Shown: in pieces, positions 12,976 to 26,585 of the stretch
Layout of the letters: the number at the start of each line of letters is the position of its first letter
Position numbering within the stretch: the stretch's first letter is position 1
From: an uncultured Actinomycetota bacterium
GTDB lineage: Bacteria > Actinomycetota > Actinomycetes > JAFAQI01
DNA length: 64,000 nt
NCBI GenBank assembly: GCA_963789615.1
Contig: CAWBLI010000008.1
Location: 832,197 to 896,196 of the forward strand
Reading direction: 5' to 3'
Notes under the pieces: model-generated
What the model was told of the DNA's origin: nothing
The model's input: only the letters and a program-made list of their open reading frames with translations
Databases searched by the model: none
Program-made: the position numbers and the translations under genes

Positions 12976-13719
12976 GTGTCTGAGCTTCCAGCCCCTGAGC
13001 GTCGATACGAGACATATGTCCATCGCCTAGAACAACGACTCGACGAAATGGTTTTCGATCATGATGGACTCGCGGAACAGCCCGAGGCAGCAGCGTGGCT
13101 CGTCCGAGCCGCCCTCAGCTACGGGAACTTGCCGCGAGCCCGGGCCGTCGTCAAGGCGACGGAGCGGATGGCCGGGGGCGGGACCGATCCCCTGGGAGCC
13201 GCAGCCGCCCTCGAGCATGCACGAGGGTTGTTGAAACGCGACGCCGTTGCGTTGGAGCGAGCCGCGACTTCACACCGGCTCCCGCGGGCACAGGCAAGCG
13301 CGGCCGAAGACGCAGCGGTCGCTCGGATGGAACGCGGCGAGACCACCCGCGCGATCGAGCTCCTTAAGCAGTCGCGAGCGGGGTACGAATCAGTGAACGC
13401 CGAGCAGGATCTGGCGAGGATTCGCTCACGGATGCGGGGCGTCGGGGTGCGCACGCAGCACTGGACTTACGCTCAGCGACCGTCGTTCGGCTGGGGGAGC
13501 CTCACGGACACCGAGCGACGGGTCGTCGATCTGGTATCAAGCGGCCTCACCAACCGTGAGGTGGCGCAGCACTTGTTCCTCTCGCATCACACCGTCGCCT
13601 TTCACCTACGGCAGATCTTCCGAAAAGTCGACGTCTGTACGCGGGTCCAGCTCACCCGCGACTGGTTGGAGCAGCCAACAGTGATCGCGGGTGGCCGGCA
13701 TGCGGCCGCATCGCCGTGA
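12976..13719 (+). CDS. LuxR family transcriptional regulator
   Basis: The C-terminal LuxR HTH is LTDTERRVVDLVSSGLTNREVAQHLFLSHHTVAFHLRQIFRKV. Start placed at GTG 12976, which has AAGGAGG 6 nt upstream and is in frame with ORF 12904. Confidence 0.8.
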   Translation: MSELPAPERRYETYVHRLEQRLDEMVFDHDGLAEQPEAAAWLVRAALSYGNLPRARAVVKATERMAGGGTDPLGAAAALEHARGLLKRDAVALERAATSHRLPRAQASAAEDAAVARMERGETTRAIELLKQSRAGYESVNAEQDLARIRSRMRGVGVRTQHWTYAQRPSFGWGSLTDTERRVVDLVSSGLTNREVAQHLFLSHHTVAFHLRQIFRKVDVCTRVQLTRDWLEQPTVIAGGRHAAASP

Positions 13720-14087
13720 AGCTTGATGATCCGCAGCAGCCCTCCGTCATGATCAGCACTGAGATCTCGGGCGAAGACACCTGTTTCCTGGTCCGACGAA
13801 CCGGTACGGCAGCCCAAGTGCGCATCAGCGGCACTCTGCGGGCAACCGACGCGCCAGCGCTGCGGAGGTGGTTCGGTCGGATGATCGACGACGGAGTGGA
13901 CTTCCTCGATGTGGACCTGGCAGGCGTTCACGAGATCGACCGTGCCGGTCTCGCGACGCTCCTCATCGTGTCGCGTCGGCTCAGGCAGCGAGGCGGCCTT
14001 CACTTCCGAGCGCTGAGCGATGAGTGTCGAGGTGCGCTGCAGCAAGCCCACTTGTTCACCGTGGAGCTCGATGACAGGAGGTGGTGA
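13716..14087 (+). CDS. STAS-domain anti-sigma-factor antagonist
   Basis: The GTG start overlaps the LuxR stop (GTGA). The STAS layout is LDVDLAGVHEIDRAGLATLLIVSRRLRQRGGLHFRAL. Confidence 0.8.
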   Translation: MKLDDPQQPSVMISTEISGEDTCFLVRRTGTAAQVRISGTLRATDAPALRRWFGRMIDDGVDFLDVDLAGVHEIDRAGLATLLIVSRRLRQRGGLHFRALSDECRGALQQAHLFTVELDDRRW

Positions 14088-14395
14088 AGGTGCCACCCAA
14101 AGGCGTTCCGTACGACGAGCCGATCACTACATGCTGCCAAGCCCATATCAGCTGGTCCGAGCTCGCGATACACCTTCATCGTGATTTCGATGTGGAAGTC
14201 AATGGGGCCCTGGTTACAGATGAGATGGACCGGGCCAGTGACGCTCTGACCTTGTTCGGTATCAGCAGTGAGGAGGAGCGGCTGTTCATCGGTGAGCGCA
14301 TCGTGCGCCATCACCTTGAGATCCTGAGTGGACAACGCCGGCTGGCGTCTCGGCTCGACCCTGAGCGGCACACTCAGCGCGAGAACGTCCTGTAA
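14081..14395 (+). CDS. uncharacterised small protein P1 (paralog of 23323-23685)
   Basis: It overlaps the STAS stop. The start is ambiguous among GTGs at 14081, 14084 and 14090, with AGGAG at 14076. It shares CC..HI.W..LA.HL..DF ... RLDPE.H with the second copy. Confidence 0.55.
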   Translation: MVKVPPKGVPYDEPITTCCQAHISWSELAIHLHRDFDVEVNGALVTDEMDRASDALTLFGISSEEERLFIGERIVRHHLEILSGQRRLASRLDPERHTQRENVL

Positions 14396-14410
14396 GCCGC
14401 CGCCAACAAG

Positions 14411-14441
14411 TCGGGGTGGCGCCCCGTGGACGCCACCCCGA
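14411..14441. terminator. perfect 11-bp stem / 9-nt loop hairpin between convergent genes
   Basis: tcggggtggcg-ccccgtgga-cgccaccccga lies between the stops at 14395 and 14456. Confidence 0.5.
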
Positions 14442-14455
14442 TGGTGCGATGTTCG

Positions 14456-15148
14456 TCAGTCACCACCGAATGGCCGAACCTTGATCTTGTTCACTACCTC
14501 GACGACACCGGGCGCAGACCATGCGGCCCGCTCGGCCTCGCGGCGCTCGGCCCAGGACCCGACCTTGCCCTTCAGGGTGACCGTGCCGCCGGCGGTCTCC
14601 ACCTGGATTCCGTGTGCGTCAGTCTCTGCGTTACGCACCAGCGCGGCCTCGACCCTGTGCTTGAGCGTCTCAGGCGACGGTGAGACGAGGGGCCTCACGG
14701 AGATGAGGTTGCTGACGCCACGGACCCCGGTGAGACGCCGTACCGCCCGCTCAGCGCTACGTCGCTCGAACTCCCACGGCACCTCTCCACGCAGCGTCAC
14801 CCATCCCTTGGAGACGGTGACCTCGATCTTGTCTGTCGGCAGCGCCGCCTCCCACTCGAGGGCGCGAACCGCCGCCGCGGCAATGTCCGCGTCGGTGCGC
14901 TGTGCGGTTCCAGGAAGGCGTACCTCAATGTCATTTGCCACCGCGGCAACACCCTTGACTCGCAGTGCCGCCTTTTCCGCATCCCACCGCTTCGGGTAGG
15001 AGTCGACGTAGCCGGTCAGCGTGACGACGCCGCCCTTGACGGACACGCCGATCTCATTCGGCTGAACCGACGCGTCCCACTTCAGCTCCTCCATGACATC
15101 CTTCTGAACCTGTTCATCCGTTTTGGCATCTAGCACGCTGGTTGCCAC
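14456..15148 (-). CDS. BON-domain protein (three BON repeats, OsmY-like)
   Basis: It carries repeated V.V..G.VTL.G.V......R..AE.A motifs. Start set to GTG 15148 with GGAGG 5 nt upstream; the longer ORF reaches 15259. Confidence 0.85.
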
Positions 15149-15276
15149 TGCTTCCTCCTGACGTCTGACGGCACTCGGGGTGGTGCCAAACCCGACTGTC
15201 GTCGCCGACGTAAGCCAGGGCATCCCCTGTCCGGCTAGGGCATCGGATCGCCCGCTCACAGCCAGCGCGCGGGCGC

Positions 15277-15306
15277 CACGCCCATCCCTCGTTTAGGGGA
15301 TGTGTG
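15277..15306. promoter_or_regulatory. imperfect palindrome shared with the hsp20 upstream region
   Basis: cacgcccatccctcgtttaggggatgtgtg lies 29-58 nt upstream of the DUF1931 ATG. Compare cacaccatccccttctaggatgtgtg at 26095-26120. Confidence 0.35.
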
Positions 15307-15334
15307 CGCGGCCGGCACCCTTGACAGTGGCCCG

Positions 15335-15784
15335 ATGCCCGTCGCTGGAGTCCCAGAGTTCGAGCGGTTCTTCCGTGAGGCGGCCTCGCTGCGCGTCGAC
15401 AAGGACGACCTCAAACGCTATGCGGGCTTCCTCGACCGCAAGGTGTCCGACCTTCTGCTGCGTGGCACGGCGAACGCCAAGGCCAACGGTCGCGACGTTA
15501 TGGAAACCTGGGACCTTCCGGTGACCAAGGGTCTGCAGGAGTCGATTCACGACTATGACCAGATCGACGCCGAACTAGGTTTGCGCCGGTTCATCGAGCC
15601 GCTGGTGAAGCGACCACCGTTGGACGTGACGCTCAGCGAGGAAGCGGAGGCGGATCTCCCGCACGTCGCTGGTGGCCTCAGCGTCGCCTTGGCGCGAGCA
15701 CTTGTCGTCATCGACCCCGGCCTGCGTAACCCGTCCACCGAGCACTGGGATCGCGCCTTCCGGATCTTCGACCTGCTCCTCTGA
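15335..15784 (+). CDS. DUF1931-family (histone-fold-like) protein
   Basis: [29 protein letters not shown]...[13 protein letters not shown] matches my recollection of the DUF1931 family end to end. ATG at 15335. Confidence 0.7.
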
Positions 15785-15849
15785 GTGCCCCTCGGTCACT
15801 ACTCATTCTGGGGATGCGCACGGGTTCGAGCTATTTGCAGGGTGAGGTC

Positions 15850-17760
15850 ATGGCCAAAGCAGCAGGAATCGACCTCGGTACGACGAACTCTGTGATCGCC
15901 GCCGTAGAGGCCGGCCAGGCCCAGGTGATCCCCAACTCTGAGGGGGCGCGAACGACACCGTCTGTCGTCGCGTTCACTGAGTCGGGCGAGCGCCTCGTGG
16001 GTCAGCTGGCCCGTCGCCAGGGGATCCTCAACCCGAAAGGGACGATCTACTCCGCGAAACGGTTCATTGGACGCCGGTACGACGAGGTCAGGAACGAGAT
16101 CGACACCGCGACGTTCGACGTCGTACCCGGTCCGGACGATTCAGTGCGGTTCAAGGTCCGGGACAAGCTGTACGCCCCCGAGGAGATCTCTGCCCAGGTC
16201 CTGCGCAAGCTCGCCGATGACGCGTCGAAGCAGCTGGGCGAGAGGGTCACCGAGGCGGTCATCACCGTTCCGGCGTACTTCAACGACGCACAGCGGCAGG
16301 CGACGAAGGACGCCGGACGCATTGCGGGGCTCGAGGTGTTGCGCATCATCAACGAGCCAACCGCCGCGGCGCTCGCTTACGGTCTGGACAAGGCCGAGCA
16401 CGAGACGGTGCTCGTCTACGACCTCGGCGGCGGGACGTTTGACGTCAGCATCCTCGACGTCGGTGACGGTGTCGTCGAGGTCCGCTCGACGTCCGGTGAC
16501 ACCCATCTCGGTGGAGACGATTTCGATCGCCGCATCGTCGATTTCCTCGCGGATGAGTTCAAGAAGAGCAACGGCATCGACCTGCGCAATGACCCGCAGG
16601 CCTTGCAGCGGTTGTTCGAGGCCGCCGAGAGAGCGAAGGTCGAGCTGTCGTCGGTTACCCAGACGACGATCAATCTGCCGTTCGTCACGGCAGACGCGTC
16701 CGGCCCGCAGCACCTGAATGTCACGCTGATGCGGTCCACGTTCGAACAGATCACGACTGACCTGGTCGAACGGACGAGCGCACCGGTCGAGCAGGCGATG
16801 GCCGACGCGAAACTCACCGCCAGCGACATCGACGAAGTCATCCTGGTTGGCGGCTCGACGCGGATCCCGGCGGTTCAGAACTTGGTCCGCCGCCTGACGG
16901 GTGGCAAGGATCCGAACATGTCGGTCAACCCCGATGAGGTCGTCGCCATCGGGGCCGCTATCCAGGCCGGCGTGCTGAAGGGCGAGGTCAAGGACGTCCT
17001 GCTCCTTGATGTCACGCCGCTATCCCTAGGCATTGAAACGCTCGGCGGGGTCATGACCAAGGTGGTCGACCGCAACACGACGATCCCGGCACGACGCACG
17101 GAGACGTTTAGCACCGCGGAAGACAACCAGAACGCCGTCGACGTCGTCGTGCTCCAGGGTGAACGGGAGCGCGCCAGCGACAATCGCGTCCTCGGTCGGT
17201 TCCGGCTGGAGAACATCCGACCGGCACCGCGAGGTGAGCCGCAGGTCGAGGTGACGTACGACATCGACGCGAACGGCATCCTCAATGTCTCGGCGCGGGA
17301 CAAGGACACGGGCGCGGAGCAGCGCATCACCATCAGCGAGAGCAGCAACCTCGACAAAAGCGAGGTTGAGCGAATGGTTTCGGATGCTGAGGCGAACCGT
17401 TCGGATGACACCCGGTTGCGACAGGACGTGGATGCCCGCAACGAGCTCGATAGCGTTGCTTACCAGGTCGAGCGCCGACTGAACGAGCTCGGTGACGCCG
17501 TACCAGTCAACGAGAAGGCGCGCGCCGAGATGCTCGTCAACGACGCGCGACAGGCGATCAAGGACGGGGCCCCACTGGAGCGGATGCGTTCGCTCACCTC
17601 GGATCTGCAGCAGGTGAACCAGAGCCTGTCCGTGTCGGGGCAGACGCCGTACCCGGACCCGGGATCCGCCGGTGACGTAAGCGGCGGCGCGGGAGGGCGA
17701 GGGGGCGATGCCCCGTCCGAGGACGATGACGTCGTCGACGCCGAGTTCACGACCAGCTGA
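15850..17760 (+). CDS. dnaK: molecular chaperone DnaK (Hsp70)
   Basis: [38 protein letters not shown] and [14 protein letters not shown] are present. ATG at 15850 follows GGTGAGG. Confidence 0.97.
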
Positions 17761-17766
17761 GCCGCT

Positions 17767-18285
17767 ATGACCGACGACCAGAGGACGACGCAGCAGAATC
17801 CGACCGGGGCACCTACCCAGGCGGAAGACCGCTCGAACGAGGTTGCGGACCTGCAGCAGAAGGTCGCCGAGCTCGAGGGCCGATGGCGGCAGTCGCTGGC
17901 CGACCTCGACAACCTGCGCAAGCGGGTAGCGCGAGACAGTCAGCGCATCGTTGAGCAGGAGCAGGGGCGTCTCACGGAGCAGTGGCTGCCAGTGGTCGAC
18001 AATCTGGAGCTCGCGATCGCCCACGCCGACGCTGATCCAGCGACGATCGTTCCGGGGGTCAAGGCGGTCTTGTCGCTCGCGATCGACCTGCTGGCTCGAC
18101 TGGGCTACCCACGACACGACGACGTCGGCGTACCGTTCGACCCGTCACGTCACGAGGCAGTCAGCGTGGTCCACGCCTCCGACGTACCCGAGGGAACCGT
18201 CGTCGATGTGGTGCGTCCCGGCTATGGCGGGGACGATCACCCGCTCCGGCCGGCCTCGGTGGTGGTGGCGTCGAGGCCGGACTAA
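17767..18285 (+). CDS. grpE: nucleotide exchange factor GrpE
   Basis: It has the coiled-coil LADLDNLRKRVARD and the C-terminal PFDPSRHEAV...G.V..V.RPGY signature. It lies immediately after dnaK. Confidence 0.9.
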   Translation: MTDDQRTTQQNPTGAPTQAEDRSNEVADLQQKVAELEGRWRQSLADLDNLRKRVARDSQRIVEQEQGRLTEQWLPVVDNLELAIAHADADPATIVPGVKAVLSLAIDLLARLGYPRHDDVGVPFDPSRHEAVSVVHASDVPEGTVVDVVRPGYGGDDHPLRPASVVVASRPD

Positions 18286-19592
18286 TGGCCGCAACGACGA
18301 CGCGGGACTACTACGACATCATCGGGGTGTCGCGAGATGCCGACGCGAAGGACATCCAACGTGCCTATCGCAAGCTCGCGCGGCAGTACCACCCGGACGT
18401 CAACAAGGACCCTGGTGCAGAAGAGAAGTTCAAAGAGATCTCACAGGCCTACGACGTCCTGTCCGACCCGGACACTCGTCGACGGTACGACGCCTTCGGC
18501 CCGGACTTCCAACGCGTGCCGGAAGGAGTCGACCCCGAAACCTGGGCCCGCGCGCAGCACAGCGGCGGCCCGGGACGCGGAAGGACAGCCAGCGGATCTG
18601 CTGGCACGGGGTTCGAAGGCTTCGAGGAGGTGCGCTTCGGGGACTTCGGTGAGGGCATCGACATCGATGACCTGCTCGGTGGCATCTTCGGGGGCGGACG
18701 GCGTGACGGCCCTGGTCGCAGCCGACGTGGCTGGGGGACGGTCCCCGGCGCCGACCAAGCGGCCGACATCGAGATCACCCTCGACGAGGCCTACCACGGC
18801 GGCCACCGATCGCTCACCATCGGCGGTGCCGACGGACCGCGAACACTCGATGTAACGATCCCCGCGGGCGTCATCGACGGCCAGCGAATCCGACTTGCCG
18901 GTCAAGGTGGTCAGGGCACCGGCGGTGGGCCAGCCGGCGACCTGTACCTCGTTGTCCGGCTGCTCCCGAACCCGGACTACCGAGTGGAGGGTCGCGACGT
19001 GTTCGCCGACATCCCGTTGACGGCATGGGAGTCAGCCCTCGGCACGTCGGTGGCGGTGGACACACCCGGCGGCGAAGCAAAGGTGAAGGTGCCCTCTGGC
19101 ACATCTAGCGGCCGCAAGCTGCGGTTGCGTGGCCGCGGCATTCCGAACCCACGCGGGCGCGCGGGCGATTTCTACGCCGTGGCGAAAATCATGGTGCCGA
19201 AGCGCCTGTCCGCTGAAGAGCGCAGGCTGTTCGAGCAACTGGCTAGCACGTCGACCTTCGACCCGAGGCGGCGGCAAATGACCTACTCGCTGACCCGACC
19301 CGGCCGGCTCGACCTGGCGACGCTCTCGGCTGCGACCGGGCTGCATCCCGACCTGCTACGCCGGCTCGTCGACCTCGGACTGTTGGACGGCAGGCCCGGG
19401 TCCAACGACTCACTTTCCTTCGCCGTCGACCAGGTCGCACAGGTGGCCCGGTTGCAACGGCTGCGCGCCGGTTTCGCGCTGAACTACGCCGCCCTCGGCC
19501 TGGTCGTCGACCTGCTCGACCGCATCGCCGTACTCGAAGCAACCACTCCTCACCGTCGAGTTCGCCGCACTGGAGGCGCCTCATGGACATGA
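18285..19592 (+). CDS. cbpA: CbpA-type J-domain co-chaperone (no zinc finger) fused in frame to a CbpM-like MerR-type modulator module
   Basis: The J domain is DYYDIIGVSRDADAKDIQRAYRKLARQYHPD. There are no Cys residues, so it is not a type I DnaJ. The C-terminus ends ...FDPRRRQ as in CbpA. It then continues without a stop into MTYSLTRPGRLDLATLSAATGLHPDLLRRLVDLGLLD... (19278-19592), which resembles E. coli CbpM. Confidence 0.85.
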   Translation: MAATTTRDYYDIIGVSRDADAKDIQRAYRKLARQYHPDVNKDPGAEEKFKEISQAYDVLSDPDTRRRYDAFGPDFQRVPEGVDPETWARAQHSGGPGRGRTASGSAGTGFEGFEEVRFGDFGEGIDIDDLLGGIFGGGRRDGPGRSRRGWGTVPGADQAADIEITLDEAYHGGHRSLTIGGADGPRTLDVTIPAGVIDGQRIRLAGQGGQGTGGGPAGDLYLVVRLLPNPDYRVEGRDVFADIPLTAWESALGTSVAVDTPGGEAKVKVPSGTSSGRKLRLRGRGIPNPRGRAGDFYAVAKIMVPKRLSAEERRLFEQLASTSTFDPRRRQMTYSLTRPGRLDLATLSAATGLHPDLLRRLVDLGLLDGRPGSNDSLSFAVDQVAQVARLQRLRAGFALNYAALGLVVDLLDRIAVLEATTPHRRVRRTGGASWT

Positions 19593-22223
19593 ACCGGTTG
19601 ACGCAGAAGTCGCAGGAAGCTGTACACGACGCGCAGACCATCGCGCTGCGCTACGGCCACACTGAAGTTGATGGCGAGCATCTGCTGCTCGCATTGCTCG
19701 ACCAGCCCGACGGTCTGGCGTCGCGGCTCCTGGAGCAGACGGGAGCGGACGTCGGTCGCATCCGGTCGGCGATCGAGGCCGAGGTCGCGACGCCGGCCGC
19801 GGGTGAGCGGCCCGGGCGCCTCCCCGGGCCAGGTGTACGTCACACAGCGACTGTCCCGTTTGCTGGATGCCGCGGAGCGAGAGGCCAAGCGGCTCAAGGA
19901 CGAGTACGTGTCCGTGGAGCACCTGCTTGTCGCGCTGCTCGACGAAGGCGCCGAGACCGGTGCCGGCCGGGTGTTGCGGGATAACGCCGTCAGCCGCGAC
20001 AAGTTCTTGCAGGCGCTGACCACGATCCGGGGCAACCAGCGGGTTACGTCGGCGATGCCGGAGGTGGCCTACGAGGCGCTCGAGAAGTACGGTCGCGACC
20101 TCGTCGTCGACGCTCGTAACGGCAAACTGGATCCAGTGATCGGCCGTGACGCCGAGATCCGCCGTGTCATTCAGATCCTTTCACGCAAGACCAAGAACAA
20201 CCCAGTCCTGATTGGTGATCCGGGCGTCGGCAAGACCGCGATCGTCGAGGGTCTCGCCCAACGGATCACCAACGGTGACGTACCGGAGGGGCTTCGCGAC
20301 AGAACGGTCTTCGCACTGGACATGGGTTCGCTGGTGGCGGGCGCGAAATACCGCGGTGAGTTCGAGGAACGGCTCAAGGCCGTACTCAATGAGGTGAAGG
20401 CCGCTGAGGGACGCATCCTGCTCTTCGTCGACGAGCTGCACACAGTGGTCGGTGCTGGCGGCGGAGCCGAAGGGGCCATGGACGCCGGCAACATGTTGAA
20501 GCCGATGCTGGCACGCGGCGAGCTTCACATGGTCGGTGCCACCACCGTTGACGAGTACCGAAAGAACGTCGAGAAGGACGCAGCGCTCGAGCGTCGGTTC
20601 CAGCCGGTCATGGTGGACGAGCCGTCCACCGAGGACGCGATCTCCATCTTGCGTGGGTTACGCGAGCGGCTTGAGGTATTCCACGGCGTCAAGATCCAGG
20701 ACAGCGCGCTCGTCGCAGCGGTGGTGCTGAGCCAGCGGTACATCTCGGACCGGTTCCTTCCGGACAAAGCAATCGACCTCGTCGACGAGGCATGCGCGAT
20801 GCTGCGCACCGAGATTGACTCCATGCCGGCCGAGCTCGACGAGCTGACCCGTCGCGTGATGCGACTGGAGATCGAGGAGACGGCGCTCGCCAAGGAGACC
20901 GACCCAGCTAGCAGGTCCCGCCTCGAGGAGCTACGTAAGGAACTCGCCGATCTGCACGCCGAGGCCGATGCGATGCGCGCACAGTGGGACGCCGAGCGGC
21001 AGGCGCTTCGCCGGGTGCAGGAGCTTCGCCAGGAGATCGAAAGAGTCCGGCAGGAGGCCGAGCAGGCAGAGCGCAGGTACGACCTCAACCGCGCGGCCGA
21101 ACTGATGCACGGCCGGCTGCCTGATCTGGAGCGGCAGTTGCACGCTGAGGAGGAGCGACTCGCCTCACGGCAAGGCGGCCGGCGGCTGCTGCGCGAGGTC
21201 GTGAGCGACGATGAGATCGCCGCCATCGTGTCGCGCTGGACCGGTATCCCCGTCAGCCGACTGCATGAAGGTGAGCGCGAGAAGCTTCTGCGCCTGGAAG
21301 AAATCCTCCATGCGCATGTGGTGGGCCAGGATGAGGCCGTTCAGCTGGTCTCCGACGCGATCATTCGGGCTCGTTCCGGCATCAAGGACCCGCGCCGACC
21401 CGTCGGGTCGTTCATTTTCCTGGGCCCCACGGGTGTCGGGAAGACCGAGCTGGCCAAGCGGCTTGCGGGAACGTTGTTCGACACCGAGGACAACATGGTT
21501 CGCATCGACATGAGCGAGTACCAGGAACGGCACACCGTCAGCCGGCTGGTCGGAGCGCCGCCAGGCTATGTCGGGTACGACGAAGGCGGTCAGCTCACCG
21601 AGGCCGTGCGCCGCAAGCCCTACTCGGTGGTGCTGTTCGACGAGATCGAGAAGGCTCACACCGACGTCTTCAACATCCTGCTGCAGGTGCTCGACGACGG
21701 CCGGTTGACGGACGGGCAAGGTCGTACGGTCGACTTTCGGAACGCCATCGTGATCATGACATCCAACGTCGGCTCCACGTATCTCATCGAGGGCGTCTCA
21801 GCCGCTGGCGAACTGAAGCCCGAGGTTCGCGACCTCGTGATGACGGAGCTGCAACAGCAGTTCCGGCCCGAGTTCCTGAACCGCGTTGACGAGATCGTGC
21901 TCTTCAAGCCGCTCACCCAAGGCGAGATCGAGCGCATCGTCGACCTGATGCTCAACGATCTGCGCGAACGGCTCGGCGACCGCCGCATATCCCTTGAGAT
22001 CACGGCGGAGGCACGCCAGTTCGTCGCTGCTCAGGGATATGACCCCGTGTACGGCGCCCGACCGTTACGCCGATTCATCGCACGAGAGGTCGAGACCCGG
22101 ATCGGCCGAGCCCTGCTGCAAGGGAACGTTCCGGACGGCTCCACCATCCGGATTGCCGTCTCCGAAGGGGAGCTGGCCGTCACGTTCAACCCACCGTCAC
22201 CCGCAGCCCAAACTGCGGCCTGA
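19583..22223 (+). pseudogene. clpB: ClpB disaggregase, reading frame broken by a 1-nt insertion near 19790 (or sequencing error)
   Basis: The N-terminus [45 protein letters not shown]...IEAEVA is in frame 19583. The rest, [46 protein letters not shown]... through both AAA+ modules to 22223, is in frame 19668. GGAGG lies 6 nt before ATG 19583. Confidence 0.9.
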
Positions 22224-22251
22224 TCCAGCGCGTACGGATCGCGGACGAGCC

Positions 22252-23265
22252 TCACGACACTTGATCGTCGTGGTGCTCGTCGTTCTTGCCCCGGCGTCGC
22301 TGACGTTCGCCGTACGCCGCTTGCCGTACCACGTCGTCGTGTTCCAGTCCCGAACCAAGCGCGCCTCCGATCATGGCTGCTGACGTGGCAAACCAGACGA
22401 TGCCGAGGCGGCCGGCCCAGGTCGGCGCGTGCCCCAACGTCGTCTGTAGTACCTGAGGAGGCAAAACGATCACGCTGATGATGGTGAGGACGATGAACAA
22501 GCCCAGGTAGAGGCAGACGATCCCCAGCATCAACGTGACGGAGGTCGTTATGTTGTACAGCCGAGCCAGCTGCTTCGCCCGCACATCGCTCGGACGCTCC
22601 CACAGCTCGTGGTCAACGATCAACCACGTCGTTAACGCCAAGCTCGACAGAACCGCAATGCCGCCGAGTCGACCAGGACCGAGCGAGACGCCAAGTTGCC
22701 AGCCAACGTTGTCGAGCAATACGAGCGCTGCCGTGCCGAACACACCGGCAAGCGACCGCGACAGCCCGGAAAAGAGGAGCCAGGGACGGTTGGCACGCAC
22801 CATGCCCAGGAGGAGACGAAGACGAGGGCGCAGGCGTGAACTGACCGGATGTGGATGCCCCGAAGAGCCTGGCTCAAGAAGCTCAGCCACTGAGGACGCG
22901 ATGACCCGCTCTGCCCGGCGATTCAGTCGCAGAGCACCTAACGCTGGCAAGGACACCACCATGACGCGGCGATCAGCGCTCGTCTCAATCTCGACGGGGT
23001 CGGTGCCATCCCGGCGTGGCAGATCGGTCAGCAGCACCGTGATGTCCCACGTCGGCTCGATTGGGACCTCCGCAGCAGCTATGTCCGCTAGCTGCGTTTG
23101 GACCCCGGTAGCGAGCGGATGACTCCGATGGTGCACGCGCCAGTCGACTTCGCCCTGGACGAGCTGCTTCATCGCCTCGGCGAGTCGGCCGGCCACGGCA
23201 GCACCGACATCCTCCGCCAGTCCCGGGTCGCTGACGATACCGATGTCGACCGAGCGTGGGTCCAT
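22252..23265 (-). CDS. hypothetical membrane protein (soluble N-terminal domain plus 4-5 TM helices)
   Basis: 337 aa with good G/C third-position bias. TM helices include WLLFSGLSRSLAGVFGTAALVLL and VTLMLGIVCLYLGLFIVLTIISVIVL. I cannot assign a family. Confidence 0.6.
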   Translation of the reverse strand: MDPRSVDIGIVSDPGLAEDVGAAVAGRLAEAMKQLVQGEVDWRVHHRSHPLATGVQTQLADIAAAEVPIEPTWDITVLLTDLPRRDGTDPVEIETSADRRVMVVSLPALGALRLNRRAERVIASSVAELLEPGSSGHPHPVSSRLRPRLRLLLGMVRANRPWLLFSGLSRSLAGVFGTAALVLLDNVGWQLGVSLGPGRLGGIAVLSSLALTTWLIVDHELWERPSDVRAKQLARLYNITTSVTLMLGIVCLYLGLFIVLTIISVIVLPPQVLQTTLGHAPTWAGRLGIVWFATSAAMIGGALGSGLEHDDVVRQAAYGERQRRRGKNDEHHDDQVS

Positions 23266-23322
23266 TCCGCAGTTGTACCCGTGTTACTGCCGGTGCCGCA
23301 CGGGAAGCCCCAGGGAAGCGCG

Positions 23323-23685
23323 TTAGTCTTCCCGGCCGGTTCCAGGCCACTCGTGGGGGATATGCCGGGCCGCCTGCGGGAATCGTCGAGAGTGTTGCTC
23401 CGGGTCCAGCCTGGCGACATCAGCGATTCGTCCGCTCCTGAGCGCGAGTCGGTGCCGCGCGATGAGTTCGGCGATCAATAGCGCATCGTCGGCCATGGAC
23501 AGATCGACTCGTTCGGCGGCTTCCTTCGCCATCCAGACCTCCTGAAGCACCTCCTGAGTAGTCAGCTCGGAGAAGTCGACGACGAGATGAGCGGCGAGAG
23601 TCACCCAGTCAATGTGCCGAGGGCAACAACGCGGCTTGCGGCAGGTCCATGGGACAAGGCTCGTCGGAAACGCCTTGTCGCGCAT
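23323..23685 (-). CDS. uncharacterised small protein P2 (paralog of 14081-14395)
   Basis: Start placed at ATG 23685 (MRDKAFPTSLVPWTCRKPRCCPRHIDW...). It aligns with P1 along its length. The longer ORF to 23922 has an implausible Arg/Ser-rich N-terminus. Confidence 0.5.
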   Translation of the reverse strand: MRDKAFPTSLVPWTCRKPRCCPRHIDWVTLAAHLVVDFSELTTQEVLQEVWMAKEAAERVDLSMADDALLIAELIARHRLALRSGRIADVARLDPEQHSRRFPQAARHIPHEWPGTGRED

Positions 23686-23812
23686 CCCTTCAACTGCTAG
23701 CCCTTCTTGCTCACCACTCGGCAGCCAGGACAGTGATCTTCTGGGAGAGAAGGCGCACACACCATAGTCGGCGGTGCCGGAGCGTTCTCCTGGTCGGTAC
23801 CCAGCGGGTGCT

Positions 23813-24385
23813 TCACCGCCGGGCACCGACCTTCGCGGCGGCTTGAACTGCTGCCAATAGCCTCGGCAGCTCATACGAGCCGTCGTAACGGACGTCGTTG
23901 ATGAAGAACGTTGGGGTGCCATTCACCCCGCTGCGCGCTCCGCTGAGAAAGTCGGCTCGCACGCGCGGTGCATGTTCACGGTCCACGAGTTCTTGCGCGA
24001 ACCGCTGCTCGTCGAGTTCTAGGTATCGCGCATAGGCAAGGAGGTCCTCGTCATCGAGCGCATCTTGGTGGGTGTAGAGCAGGTCGTGCATCGGCCAGAA
24101 CGCGCCCTGAGCACTGGCGCACTCTGCCGCCTCCGCCGCCGGTTCCGCGCGGGGGTGGACCGTGGTTAAGGGAAAGTGCCGGAAGACGTAACGTACGTCA
24201 GGCTCGGCGCGGAGCAAGTGAGCCACGATGAGATGGGCCTGACCGCAATATGGACATTGGTAGTCGCCGTACTCCACGAGCGTCACGGGCGCATCATTGG
24301 GCCCGCGGATGTGGTCGCGGTTGGGCGAAACGGGCTCACGGAGACTGGCCGGCGCTTCTGCGTATCCATCCCAAGCCGTGCTCAT
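23813..24385 (-). CDS. DsbA-family thioredoxin-fold oxidoreductase
   Basis: MSTAWDG...LVEYGDYQCPYCGQAH contains the CPYC active site. ATG 24385 overlaps the upstream stop (ATGA), which implies translational coupling. Confidence 0.85.
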   Translation of the reverse strand: MSTAWDGYAEAPASLREPVSPNRDHIRGPNDAPVTLVEYGDYQCPYCGQAHLIVAHLLRAEPDVRYVFRHFPLTTVHPRAEPAAEAAECASAQGAFWPMHDLLYTHQDALDDEDLLAYARYLELDEQRFAQELVDREHAPRVRADFLSGARSGVNGTPTFFINDVRYDGSYELPRLLAAVQAAAKVGARR

Positions 24386-24870
24386 GCGCTCACCTTGTCT
24401 CGTTGCGACAATGACTCGAGAGCAGCCAGGACACCGTCCGCGCCGGGGTTCACTCCGACCGGTGAGAGGTAGCTCCAGTCGATGACCCCGTTGCGATCGA
24501 TAACGAAAAGCGCGCGCTGGCTGAAGCCGTCCTGGGTGCGGTAGGCGCCGTACGACTGGGCAACCTGACCCTTGGGCTCGAAATCGGACAGCAAGGGGTA
24601 TGTGATCTTGCGGTCGTGGGCGAACGCGAGATGACACCACACGCCATCGACGGAGATGCCCAGCAGCTCGGCGTGGTAGTTCCGGAACTCCGGTATGAGC
24701 TCTTGAAAAAGCACCATCTGGTCGCTACAGACGGGACTCCAGTCCGCGGGGTAGAAGGCCAGGATGACGGGATGACCGCGGAAGTCCGTCAAGGACACCC
24801 TCTGGTCCGGTGTGCTCGCTAGCGAGAACTCGGGAGCTTGGACACCTCTTTGAAGCGTTCGTCCGTCCAT
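24382..24870 (-). CDS. peroxiredoxin (AhpC/TSA family, AhpE-like)
   Basis: VILAFYPADWSPVCSDQ carries the peroxidatic Cys context. ISVDG, YPLLSDF and ALFVIDRNGVI are also present. Confidence 0.9.
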   Translation of the reverse strand: MDGRTLQRGVQAPEFSLASTPDQRVSLTDFRGHPVILAFYPADWSPVCSDQMVLFQELIPEFRNYHAELLGISVDGVWCHLAFAHDRKITYPLLSDFEPKGQVAQSYGAYRTQDGFSQRALFVIDRNGVIDWSYLSPVGVNPGADGVLAALESLSQRDKVSA

Positions 24871-24921
24871 GAGATCACTACACCAAGGTCGTCGCCGGCC
24901 GACATCGTCAATCCTGACGGG

Positions 24922-25194
24922 TCATTTCACCTCGTCACGGATGCCTGGACCACCGTCGACGTCGCCCGGTCGGCTCCACCCGCGCTTGTACCGGGCGTTG
25001 TCAGGCACCTCGCCGCTCAGCCGCATCATCTGGTATTGGGTCATCGTCTCGACGGTCGGCAGATGCTCGGCCTCGTCGAGGCCGAACGCGTCGGCTGCCT
25101 GTCGGTTCCGGGTGATGTTGTCGATGACCTCACCCGCCGCGACCTGCGGGAACTGGCTCGACCAGACGGTGAGCCAGATCGACCCAGCCGTCAT
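24922..25194 (-). CDS. hypothetical protein
   Basis: Counted from ATG 25194, third-position G/C bias is very strong. Product: MTAGSIWLTVWSSQFPQVAAGEVIDNITRNRQ... No family recognised and the start is uncertain. Confidence 0.45.
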   Translation of the reverse strand: MTAGSIWLTVWSSQFPQVAAGEVIDNITRNRQAADAFGLDEAEHLPTVETMTQYQMMRLSGEVPDNARYKRGWSRPGDVDGGPGIRDEVK

Positions 25195-25616
25195 CTTGGC
25201 GCTCTTGGCGTCGCCCGTCGGCTCACCTCGGGCAATGACGTCACCCCTCACAGCTGCCGTGCACGGTCGGGCCCCGACCATGCGCTCGCCTGCCACTGAC
25301 GACCGTTATCGGGCCGCCGGCCCGCGGGGGCGAACGCTGGCTGGACCGCGCCCGACGTCGAGAGCGTCTGGTCTCTACGCGACTGAGCGGCTGGTCGGAC
25401 GCCGTCCCCTCCCCGGTTGCCGGCGGGAGGACGGTCCCGCCGGCAGCCGGTTCCGCGGGCGGTGGGTGGCACGGTTGGCCAGCCCGCCGCGATGATGGCG
25501 TCGAACTCCGCGCGCAGCAGCTCCTCATCGGCGCAGATCAGGTCAGCGAACTCCGTCGTCCCAGGCCCGTGCGGAGGAGCGCTCTGCCAGGTATGCGGTC
25601 ATCGGCGCCACCGCGC

Positions 25617-26054
25617 TCAGACGTTGATGGCCTGACGGTCGTGGCCGTTGCTGTTGCTGCTGATCGTGATCTTGCGGGGCTTCGCCTGCTCGGCGACTGG
25701 GATCCGCAGCGTCAGGACACCGGCGTCGTAGCTCGCGGCGACGCGTTCGGTGTCGAGGGTGTCGCCGAGGATGAGCTGCCGGCTGAACACGCCGCGGGGC
25801 CGCTCGGCGGCGATGAGCTCGGTGTCGTCATCGCGGCCGGCGCGCTCTGCCTTGACGGTCAGGACGTTGCGTTCCACGTCGAGGTCGATCGAGTCCGGTG
25901 CGACGCCCGGCAGGTCGAGCTCGACGACGAACGTGTCGCCGTCGCGCCACGCGTCCATCGGCATCACGGCCGGGCGAGCGAGCGTTCCCTGGGTTCCGAA
26001 GACCTGCTGAGACAGTCGGTCCAGCTCGCGGAACGGGTCAGTGCGCATCAGCAT
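25617..26054 (-). CDS. Hsp20/alpha-crystallin small heat-shock protein
   Basis: [14 protein letters not shown]...[18 protein letters not shown]...[13 protein letters not shown]...[17 protein letters not shown] 26054 has GGAGGTGGAGCA upstream. Confidence 0.92.
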
Positions 26055-26094
26055 TGCTCCACCTCCGTCGTAGTGACTGATGCTCCCTACGAGG

Positions 26095-26120
26095 CACACC
26101 ATCCCCTTCTAGGATGTGTG
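26095..26120. promoter_or_regulatory. imperfect palindrome in the hsp20 / hspR-like divergent region, shared with 15277-15306
   Basis: cacaccatcc-ccttcta-ggatgtgtg forms 10-11 bp arms with one bulge. It lies 41-66 nt upstream of the hsp20 ATG. Confidence 0.35.
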
Positions 26121-26210
26121 CCAAACACTATAGATTTGATCTATCACAGGTAGCATACTGAGGCAAGAGCCCGGGAAGGTTCCGGACGAGAACGAGGAGA
26201 GGTGTAGGAC

Positions 26211-26585
26211 GTGGCAGGTGTGCCGGCACCGGACGCCGACCGTGGCGTGTACGGCATCACGACCGCCGCTGAGCTCGTCGGCATGGGCGTGCAGAACCTA
26301 CGTCTGTACGAGGCGCGGGGTCTGCTCGAACCGGACCGGACCGACGGCGGCACCCGCCGTTACAGCGCCCACGACCTCGACCGGTTGCGTCGCATCGGTG
26401 ACCTGCTCGACGCCGGGCTGAACCTCGCCGGCATCGGCATGGTCCTCGGCCTCGAGACCGAGAACGCGCAGCTGCGAGCTGAACGGGACGACCAAGTAGG
26501 CCTACCCACCGCCAGACTGCACCCCACCCGCAAGGCTGCATCGGATTCCGCGACCGAGGCTGCTACCCCCGGGCATCGCGGTTGA
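26211..26585 (+). CDS. MerR-family, HspR-like heat-shock regulator
   Basis: YGITTAAELVGMGVQNLRLYEARGLLEPDRTDGGTRRYSAHDLDRLRRIGDLLDAGLNLAGI parallels the HspR N-terminal HTH region. The gene is divergent from hsp20. Confidence 0.8.
   Translation: MAGVPAPDADRGVYGITTAAELVGMGVQNLRLYEARGLLEPDRTDGGTRRYSAHDLDRLRRIGDLLDAGLNLAGIGMVLGLETENAQLRAERDDQVGLPTARLHPTRKAASDSATEAATPGHRG

Follow-up and report, generated by a model that had tools for sequence, protein, structure and literature searches.

Two similar palindromes upstream of hsp20 and DUF1931-dnaK in an uncultured actinomycete may be different elements: a leader stem-loop and a promoter box

Heat-shock control in actinobacteria is usually described by three repressor systems, HspR with its HAIR operator, HrcA with CIRCE, and RheA. 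HspR, a heat-shock repressor of the MerR family, controls the dnaK operon and clpB in Streptomyces, Mycobacterium and Helicobacter, and an inverted repeat upstream of the canonical dnaK-grpE-dnaJ-hspR operon mediates its autoregulation; RheA, known from Streptomyces albus, is a thermosensing repressor encoded divergently to the small heat-shock gene hsp18. Two other kinds of element bear on the present case, the 5′ leader stem-loops that stabilise mRNAs such as ompA of Escherichia coli and aprE and ermC of Bacillus subtilis, and the leaderless promoters of actinobacteria, which carry a -10 hexamer whose second base is A and whose sixth is T, separated by 6-7 nt from the start codon. Here, we analyse a 64-kb stretch of DNA (the window, whose positions are used throughout) from the 3.67-Mb genome of an uncultured actinomycete, where two similar palindromes, site A upstream of hsp20 and site B upstream of DUF1931-dnaK, had been taken in a sequence-only reading as copies of one shared motif, perhaps an operator. 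Comparison with relatives leaves the shared operator unsupported. The reading that we prefer, to which we give an even chance of being right, is that the two palindromes are different elements, A being a variable leader stem-loop that overlaps half of a repressor site and B lying on a local promoter box.

Site A reads CACACCATCC-CCTTCTA-GGATGTGTG at positions 26095-26120, 41-66 nt upstream of the hsp20 ATG; as an imperfect inverted repeat it occupies 26094-26121 of the minus strand, in hsp20 orientation GCACACATCC-TAGAAG-GGGATGGTGTGC. Site B reads CACGCCCATCCC-TCGTTTA-GGGGATGTGTG at 15277-15306, 29-58 nt upstream of the DUF1931 ATG, and sequence, repeat search and fold together define it as the imperfect inverted repeat CACGC-CC-ATCCC-TCGTTTAG-GGGAT-GTGTG(CGC) at 15277-15309, with its centre about 43 nt before that ATG. 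In both sites each arm consists of a CACAC block and an ATCC block, and the bulge lies in the left arm of the plus strand. Folded as RNA, site A reaches -18.6 kcal/mol (z-score -3.5) and site B -26.6 kcal/mol over 51 nt (z-score -2.0). The earlier description proved accurate, from the positions and the inverted repeats to the neighbouring genes, as sequence and Pfam confirm. It was equally right about the missing classical operators, and more broadly than it had claimed: neither HAIR (CTTGAGT-N7-ACTCAAG) nor CIRCE (TTAGCACTC-N9-GAGTGCTAA) has a match at up to 3 mismatches anywhere in the 64-kb window. Elsewhere in the genome, HAIR-like repeats precede a second, housekeeping dnaK on contig C9, and CIRCE occurs at four other loci, presumably of the groEL/groES type.

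Several observations speak against one operator serving both hsp20 and DUF1931-dnaK. The cores are CATCC-N7-GGATG in A and CATCC-N10-GGATG in B, and with spacings of 7 and 10 nt one rigid dimer would not fit both sites. Neither palindrome retrieves the other when used as a query (nhmmer E > 1000; in blastn-short other places rank above it). The conservation check that had been proposed for the motif was run on the upstream regions of 87 actinomycete hsp20 loci, 7 from relatives and 80 from named genomes, and the motif is absent from those of the orthologous hsp20 genes. Nor was it found as a regulatory site elsewhere: CATCC-N5-12-GGATGTGTG occurs twice in this genome and four times in 37 other genomes of the order, where all four occurrences fall inside long open frames. 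At site B the comparison of orthologues led nowhere, because the nearest DUF1931 homologues (Leifsonia, Pseudonocardia, Mycobacterium and metagenomes) are distant, with identities of no more than 60% and unrelated upstream sequences that hold no motif like site B; in 40 relatives DUF1931 was not found. The A/B pair is unusual within this genome and has no conservation outside it.

What is conserved upstream of hsp20 is another element. About half of the 87 loci share an architecture in which TTGCaC-17-TGnTATAAA is followed by two A's and then by ATCTAT-N10-A[T/C]AGAT. Here, all on the minus strand, the -35 is TTGCCT (family TTGCaC) at 26161-26166, 17 nt from the extended -10 TGaTAGATC (family TGnTATAAA) at 26138-26146, which was placed with a position matrix over 44 loci, and the repeat is the 22-bp ATCTAT-AGTGTTTGGC-ACACAT at 26114-26135, candidate operator of the divergent HspR-like repressor, with half-sites H1 at 26130-26135 and H2 at 26114-26119. 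Site A, for which the role of operator of the local HspR-like protein had been suggested, overlaps only the right half, H2, of this conserved repeat, that is, with one arm only. The repeat is present at up to 2 mismatches in 44 of the 87 loci and at up to 3 in 55, with about 0.01 expected per region by chance; the N10 spacing never varies, the sequence of the 10-nt centre does, and the loci that carry it belong to Pseudonocardiales, Mycobacteriales, Micrococcales, Propionibacteriales and others. Orthologues of the MerR-type regulator (50-82% identical over BLAST high-scoring segment pairs) lie divergently upstream of hsp20 in most repeat-carrying loci: repeat and regulator occur together in 36 loci, the repeat alone in 7, the regulator alone in 13, all of these with degenerate repeats, and neither in 31 (Fisher p 4e-7, a value overstated since the loci are related). 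In this genome the repeat is single-copy at up to 2 mismatches.

The position of the -10 would put the start of hsp20 transcription inside the left half-site at about 26131, where an AT-rich palindrome (26130-26144) is formed by that half-site and the -10, the plus-strand ATCTAT of the -10 being its right arm. With a start near 26131, a protein sitting on the 22-bp repeat would cover it, and an operator that covers the start is the usual repressor arrangement. In the mechanism that we propose, the housekeeping-type promoter TTGCCT-17-TGaTAGATC would drive hsp20, the whole control region having been inherited with the hsp20/HspR-like pair, and a dimer of the divergent HspR-like MerR protein would bind the 22-bp repeat and block initiation until stress releases it. 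In a limited search of the open-access literature we found no description of an ATCTAT-N10-ATAGAT site.

Site A behaves differently from the repeat that it overlaps. Its predicted stem-loop would span about +11 to +38 of the hsp20 leader, with a 5′ arm (GGCACACATCC on the hsp20 strand) that contains the right half-site and a 3′ arm without conserved sequence. Across 18 close loci the stem starts at the same position in every case, and the sequence of the 3′ arm and the length of the loop differ, with arm pairs such as GCCATAGA/TCTATGGC, GGCACAG/CTGTGCC and GGGCAT/GTGCCC and predicted loops of about 4 to 15 nt. When this genome is left out, the seven pairs of the outer stem are formed at 82% in 15 orthologous leaders, against 29-42% when the partners are slid, and covariation (3 pairs, 8 cells with double changes) gives a score that 1 of 500 shuffles reaches; we counted this stated outer stem, as RNAalifold on a MAFFT alignment returned only 3 pairs, the bulges misaligning the inner stem. 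The G-to-C change of this genome in the 5′ arm is itself matched by a C-to-G change in the 3′ arm. Nearly all of the 55 leaders with the repeat fold more stably than shuffled sequence, and in distant lineages, where the stem is built from the repeat centre and downstream bases and the right half-site moves into the loop, a stem is still present.

A repeat with fixed sequence and spacing, combined with another in which both are free, is as expected of a protein site overlapping an RNA stem-loop, and the variable geometry of site A favours the RNA reading without proving it. Rfam holds no relevant match for site A or for site B. The 5′ arm and the freely varying 3′ arm would form the stem-loop within the first 40 nt of the leader, where it may affect the stability or processing of the mRNA; an effect on ribosome access is not foreseen, because the ribosome-binding site is untouched. 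The option of a hairpin in the 5′-untranslated region, also raised in the sequence-only reading, suits site A, with its covariation and 82% pairing. An RNA thermometer of the ROSE or fourU kind was discarded for site A, which ends 28 nt before the Shine-Dalgarno sequence and has no Rfam match. A separate hairpin of the same leader lies further down: on the minus strand, GCAUCAG (26077-26083) can pair with CUGAUGC (26045-26051, codons 2-4), enclosing the Shine-Dalgarno sequence and the AUG, and a repeat search gives arms of 12 nt, 83% complementary; GGAGCATC recurs in hsp20 leaders of close orthologues that also begin with ATGCTGATGCGC. This hairpin could be a translational thermosensor.

At site B, the right arm coincides with a box, GGGGATG, that belongs to a different kind of arrangement. 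Facing DUF1931 on the plus strand (15296-15328), GGGGATG at 15296-15302 is followed after 20 nt by GACAGT at 15323-15328 and, 6 nt later, by the ATG at 15335. Facing BON on the minus strand (15195-15227), GGGGATG at 15221-15227 and GACAGT at 15195-15200 are again 20 nt apart, so that two box pairs with the same gap and unrelated spacers point outwards from one 175-nt intergenic region. A variant precedes dnaK on the plus strand (15810-15843), with GGGGATG at 15810-15816, 21 nt, CAGGGT at 15838-15843, 6 nt and the ATG at 15850; the supposed half-site of the palindrome in this place, GGGGATGCGCAC at 15810-15821, is indeed present, yet fits better as a promoter-type box (GGGGATG-N21-CAGGGT-N6-ATG). 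At DUF1931 the GACAGT, a -10-like hexamer 6 nt before the ATG and without a Shine-Dalgarno sequence, has the geometry of leaderless transcripts, and the sequence suggests that the DUF1931 mRNA is probably leaderless.

GGGGATG-N19-21-GACAGT has three copies in the genome, where about one is expected, the third lying inside a coding frame, and of the four genomic matches to GGGGATG-N19-22-NANNNT-N5-7-[AG]TG two end exactly on the start codons of DUF1931 and dnaK. A 73%-identical BON orthologue, from a relative of another genus, keeps 17 identical bases around GGGGATG and 9 around GACAGT, with a diverged spacer between them. The pair occurs five times in 37 other genomes of the order: three copies are inside long open frames, one (genome G014) has no assigned context, and only that of the BON orthologue precedes a gene start and is crossed by no open frame. 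We propose that site B lies upstream of the putative start of a leaderless DUF1931-dnaK transcript, with GGGGATG at about -39 to -33, that the same boxes would drive the divergent BON, a variant preceding dnaK, and that an alternative sigma factor or activator may make contact with GGGGATG, on leaderless or short-leader transcripts. It is not read as a standard -35, because the 20-nt gap is too long.

Among known sigma factors, Sigma-54, SigH/SigE/SigR (GGAAT-N18-GTT), SigK (CCATCC-N16-CCGAAT) and SigB/SigF (GTTT-N14-17-GGGTAT) were compared by eye, through their consensus sequences, with the arms of the palindromes, and none fits both sites; a GTTT 16 nt before GGGGAT is found only at hsp20. 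On the BON side, the box lies within a 14-bp palindrome, CAGGGGATGCCCTG (15216-15229, minus strand), for which a DosR-type reading was dismissed, the palindrome being too short; GGGGATGCCCT recurs at C5:817746 and C5:1805998. Distant BON paralogues in relatives (L145, L149, L146) are preceded by palindromes such as TAGGGACCATCGGCCCTA, which recall DosR/DevR-type boxes, unlike GGGGATG/GACAGT.

How far the resemblance of the two palindromes exceeds chance depends on what is counted. Sites A and B have in common the 10-mer GGATGTGTGC, whose four genomic copies, two of them in A and B, are about the expected number; a joint profile of A and B matches, in the whole genome, A and B only. Among 200,000 random pairs of intergenic regions of this genome, 15% have some 10-mer in common and 2.8% one with at least four A/T, and only 1.8e-4 have one with at least four A/T that is hairpin-paired in both regions. 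The low coincidence rate, the bulge in the same arm and the similar loops (TAGAAG versus TAAACGA) would fit a real link between A and B, and a connection specific to this strain is possible.

Such a link could take several forms. One protein of this strain might recognise both palindromes and co-regulate hsp20 and DUF1931-dnaK, the candidates being the HspR-like MerR protein, the MerR_2/CbpM-like domain of the J-protein fusion and any other regulator that the cluster encodes. This idea draws strength from the joint profile and the coincidence rate just given, from the intergenic position of both sites before chaperone genes 11 kb apart, from the same bulged two-block arm in each, and from the MerR_2 domain, which here fills the fourth position, that of hspR, in the dnaK-grpE-dnaJ-hspR order. 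However, the difference in core spacing amounts to a helix turn of roughly 100 degrees, the genome has no third site, the motif is not kept at orthologous hsp20 genes whose MerR has a near-identical recognition helix, and a candidate site with much better conservation is already available to the MerR protein of this strain. Nor is CbpM known to bind DNA, which counts against its domain as the shared regulator. For CbpM, PMC4063869 gives an evolutionary link only. Overall, we consider such a protein distinctly unlikely. We think just as little of the proposal that both sites are RNA stem-loops of the minus strand with a common role, through a shared RNA-binding protein or as nuclease barriers, A in the hsp20 leader and B in a long BON leader that would start from a promoter overlapping the beginning of DUF1931. 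The best alignment of A and B does put both on the minus strand, which is sense for hsp20 and for BON, with GCACACATCC, similar loops and then GGGATGG; that strand also has a -10-like CACTGT (15324-15329) some 15 nt upstream of B, and covariation backs the pairing of site A. But site B is absent upstream of the relative's BON orthologue, where the promoter footprint is kept downstream of the position at which site B would be expected, and its fold has the modest z-score already mentioned, in GC-rich sequence; stability, moreover, shows no strand asymmetry, and no Rfam family matches.

Alternatively, the shared unit may be GGGGATG itself, as the box of an acquired cluster's stress sigma factor or activator. 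The 3′ arm at hsp20 would then have evolved into GGGGATG in this strain, joining the regulon, and later changes in the 5′ arm would have preserved the stem and so produced the likeness to site B. In sense orientation GGGGATG does stand 33-72 nt before BON, DUF1931, dnaK and hsp20, and the relatives' GATCTGTGG compares with GGGATGGTGTGCC in this strain, a change compensated in the other arm. Against this, no -10-like NANNNT occurs 18-22 nt after the GGGGATG of hsp20, the 10-mer common to both sites sits in A on the arm opposite GGGGATG, and GGGGATG by itself shows no intergenic enrichment; we rate the proposal as unlikely. That site B has no function at all, and that the resemblance arose by pure chance from comparing several GC-rich intergenic regions, agrees with the frequency of common 10-mers among random intergenic pairs, with the genomic count of this 10-mer equalling its expectation, and with the failure of A and B to retrieve each other or of any orthologue to back site B. 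It clashes with the finding that GGGGATG, the box in the right arm of site B, has a phylogenetic footprint at BON and a further copy at dnaK, and with the rarity of hairpin and 10-mer combined, and we regard it as very improbable.

Our preferred reading of two different elements has its own weaknesses, and several results weigh against it. Resemblance between A and B is rarer than random intergenic pairs would give, and the bulge in the same arm and the like loops would fit a link specific to this strain. The left arm of site B (CCCATCCC) is left without a role. GGGGATG alone has 84 of its 516 copies in intergenic DNA, which makes up 15% of the genome by a home-made codon-usage gene caller with about 85% coverage and approximate start codons; it is therefore not enriched, and this lack of enrichment rules it out as a general promoter word. 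At hsp20, H2 is ACACAT, with C as its fourth base where 42 of the 44 relatives have G, and a change at this nearly invariant base makes repressor binding less certain here than in the relatives. Stem stability is the same on either strand and so does not distinguish an RNA from a DNA palindrome. Finally, a simple scan for sigma-70 promoters and terminators returned nothing in either upstream region, and the promoters and leaders assigned at both sites were all deduced from sequence.

The genes concerned can be given briefly. The hsp20 gene (145 aa; Pfam HSP20, E 1.6e-22) runs from its ATG at 26054 through 25617-26054 of the minus strand, with the Shine-Dalgarno sequence GGAGGTGGAG at 26057-26066, and the divergent gene of the HspR-like MerR-family regulator (Pfam MerR_1, E 2.4e-17) occupies 26211-26585 of the plus strand. 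DUF1931 (15335-15784, plus strand; Pfam DUF1931, E 8.5e-50), whose ATG at 15335 is the one to which the N-termini of homologues align, opens the run DUF1931-dnaK-grpE-cbpA::MerR_2-clpB, and a triple-BON gene lies divergently at 14456-15148 of the minus strand. Pfam upholds the identities of HSP20, MerR_1, DUF1931, BON, HSP70 and GrpE, and of DnaJ together with MerR_2 in a single frame. This frame, of 435 codons (18285-19592), carries DnaJ, DnaJ_C and a MerR_2/CbpM-like domain (Pfam; NCBIfam CbpM, E 1.7e-6), so that the place in the operon usually taken by hspR in actinobacteria is occupied by a fusion of a J-protein with its presumed modulator. The clpB gene appears split, with the start of Clp_N in the frame 19583-19984 and the remainder in 19668-22223, which suggests a frameshift or a sequencing error; likewise, the HAIR-controlled dnaK (C9:122564-124280) is matched in two fragments that adjoin at position 229 of the profile, suggesting a frameshift or an assembly error.

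The whole BON/DUF1931-dnaK/hsp20 cluster (12976-26585) looks accessory, because the genome uses HAIR and CIRCE elsewhere, including at a second dnaK. BON was found in 5 of the 40 relatives, and a genome of the same genus lacks hsp20, BON and DUF1931, in an assembly that is only 80% complete. For such a cluster (BON and DUF1931-dnaK-grpE-cbpA::MerR_2-clpB), the GGGGATG/GACAGT boxes offer a way to test how it is switched on.

Seen across the hsp20 loci, a single orthologous gene stands behind at least four control regions according to lineage (loci L050-L129): the MerR protein with its 22-bp repeat, a RheA-type arrangement, CIRCE (L112, L090) and, in several Pseudonocardiaceae, a GC-rich hairpin, GCGTCGTGACGACGC, just before the ribosome-binding site. 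The commonest wiring in the sample is the first, an HspR-like paralogue with its own 22-bp site. Tentatively, and with more doubt than confidence, we suggest that the hsp20/HspR-like pair, with its fixed site and a hairpin conserved in structure only, constitutes an undescribed regulon of a small heat-shock protein across many actinomycete orders, parallel to HspR/HAIR, HrcA/CIRCE and RheA, or else that the hairpin was re-tuned in this strain toward the site of the acquired DUF1931-dnaK, with a factor of the cluster co-controlling both. A palindrome beside a MerR-family gene is not necessarily its operator, and this is a caution for annotation; at hsp20 the candidate operator and the leader stem-loop overlap, and only the comparison with relatives separates them.

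Among described systems, HspR/HAIR is the closest. The regulator scores best with the HspR family, and its candidate site, an inverted repeat of about 21-22 bp, covers promoter and start at a heat-shock gene with which the regulator gene shares its control region. Three defining features nonetheless fail, namely the operator, the equivalog score and the operon position: the repeat is ATCTAT-N10-ATAGAT instead of CTTGAGT-N7-ACTCAAG, with a single genomic target here; the score against NCBIfam HspR (NF047375) is 82.7 bits, below the equivalog cut-off of 105 bits; and the regulator is divergent to hsp20 (in 36 of the 43 loci with the repeat at up to 2 mismatches) instead of last in dnaK-grpE-dnaJ. 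A MerR-type activator promoter, with a spacer of 19-20 bp and the repeat inside it, was also set aside, the spacer here being 17 nt and the repeat downstream of the -10.

Like the stabilising leader stem-loops, site A would form a stable hairpin close to the 5′ end, conserved in structure rather than in sequence; it differs from them in the roughly 10 unpaired bases before the stem, more than in the classical cases, if transcription starts at about 26131, and in a stem that also carries half of a candidate protein-binding site. The GACAGT-N6-ATG of DUF1931 and the CAGGGT-N6-ATG of dnaK fit the geometry of leaderless promoters, although their hexamers begin with G or C instead of T, an extra conserved GGGGATG lies 20-21 nt upstream, and dnaK also has a Shine-Dalgarno-like GGTGAGG. 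In its logic, the hsp20 locus comes closest to RheA/hsp18. Orthologues of this same hsp20 in Lentzea, Streptomyces and Saccharothrix have TGTCATC-N5-GATGACA in the same place, an operator that is absent here from 26055-26210; in both cases a dedicated repressor would be encoded divergently to an orthologous hsp20 and act at an operator on its promoter, with a MerR-type neighbour here in the place of RheA and another operator.

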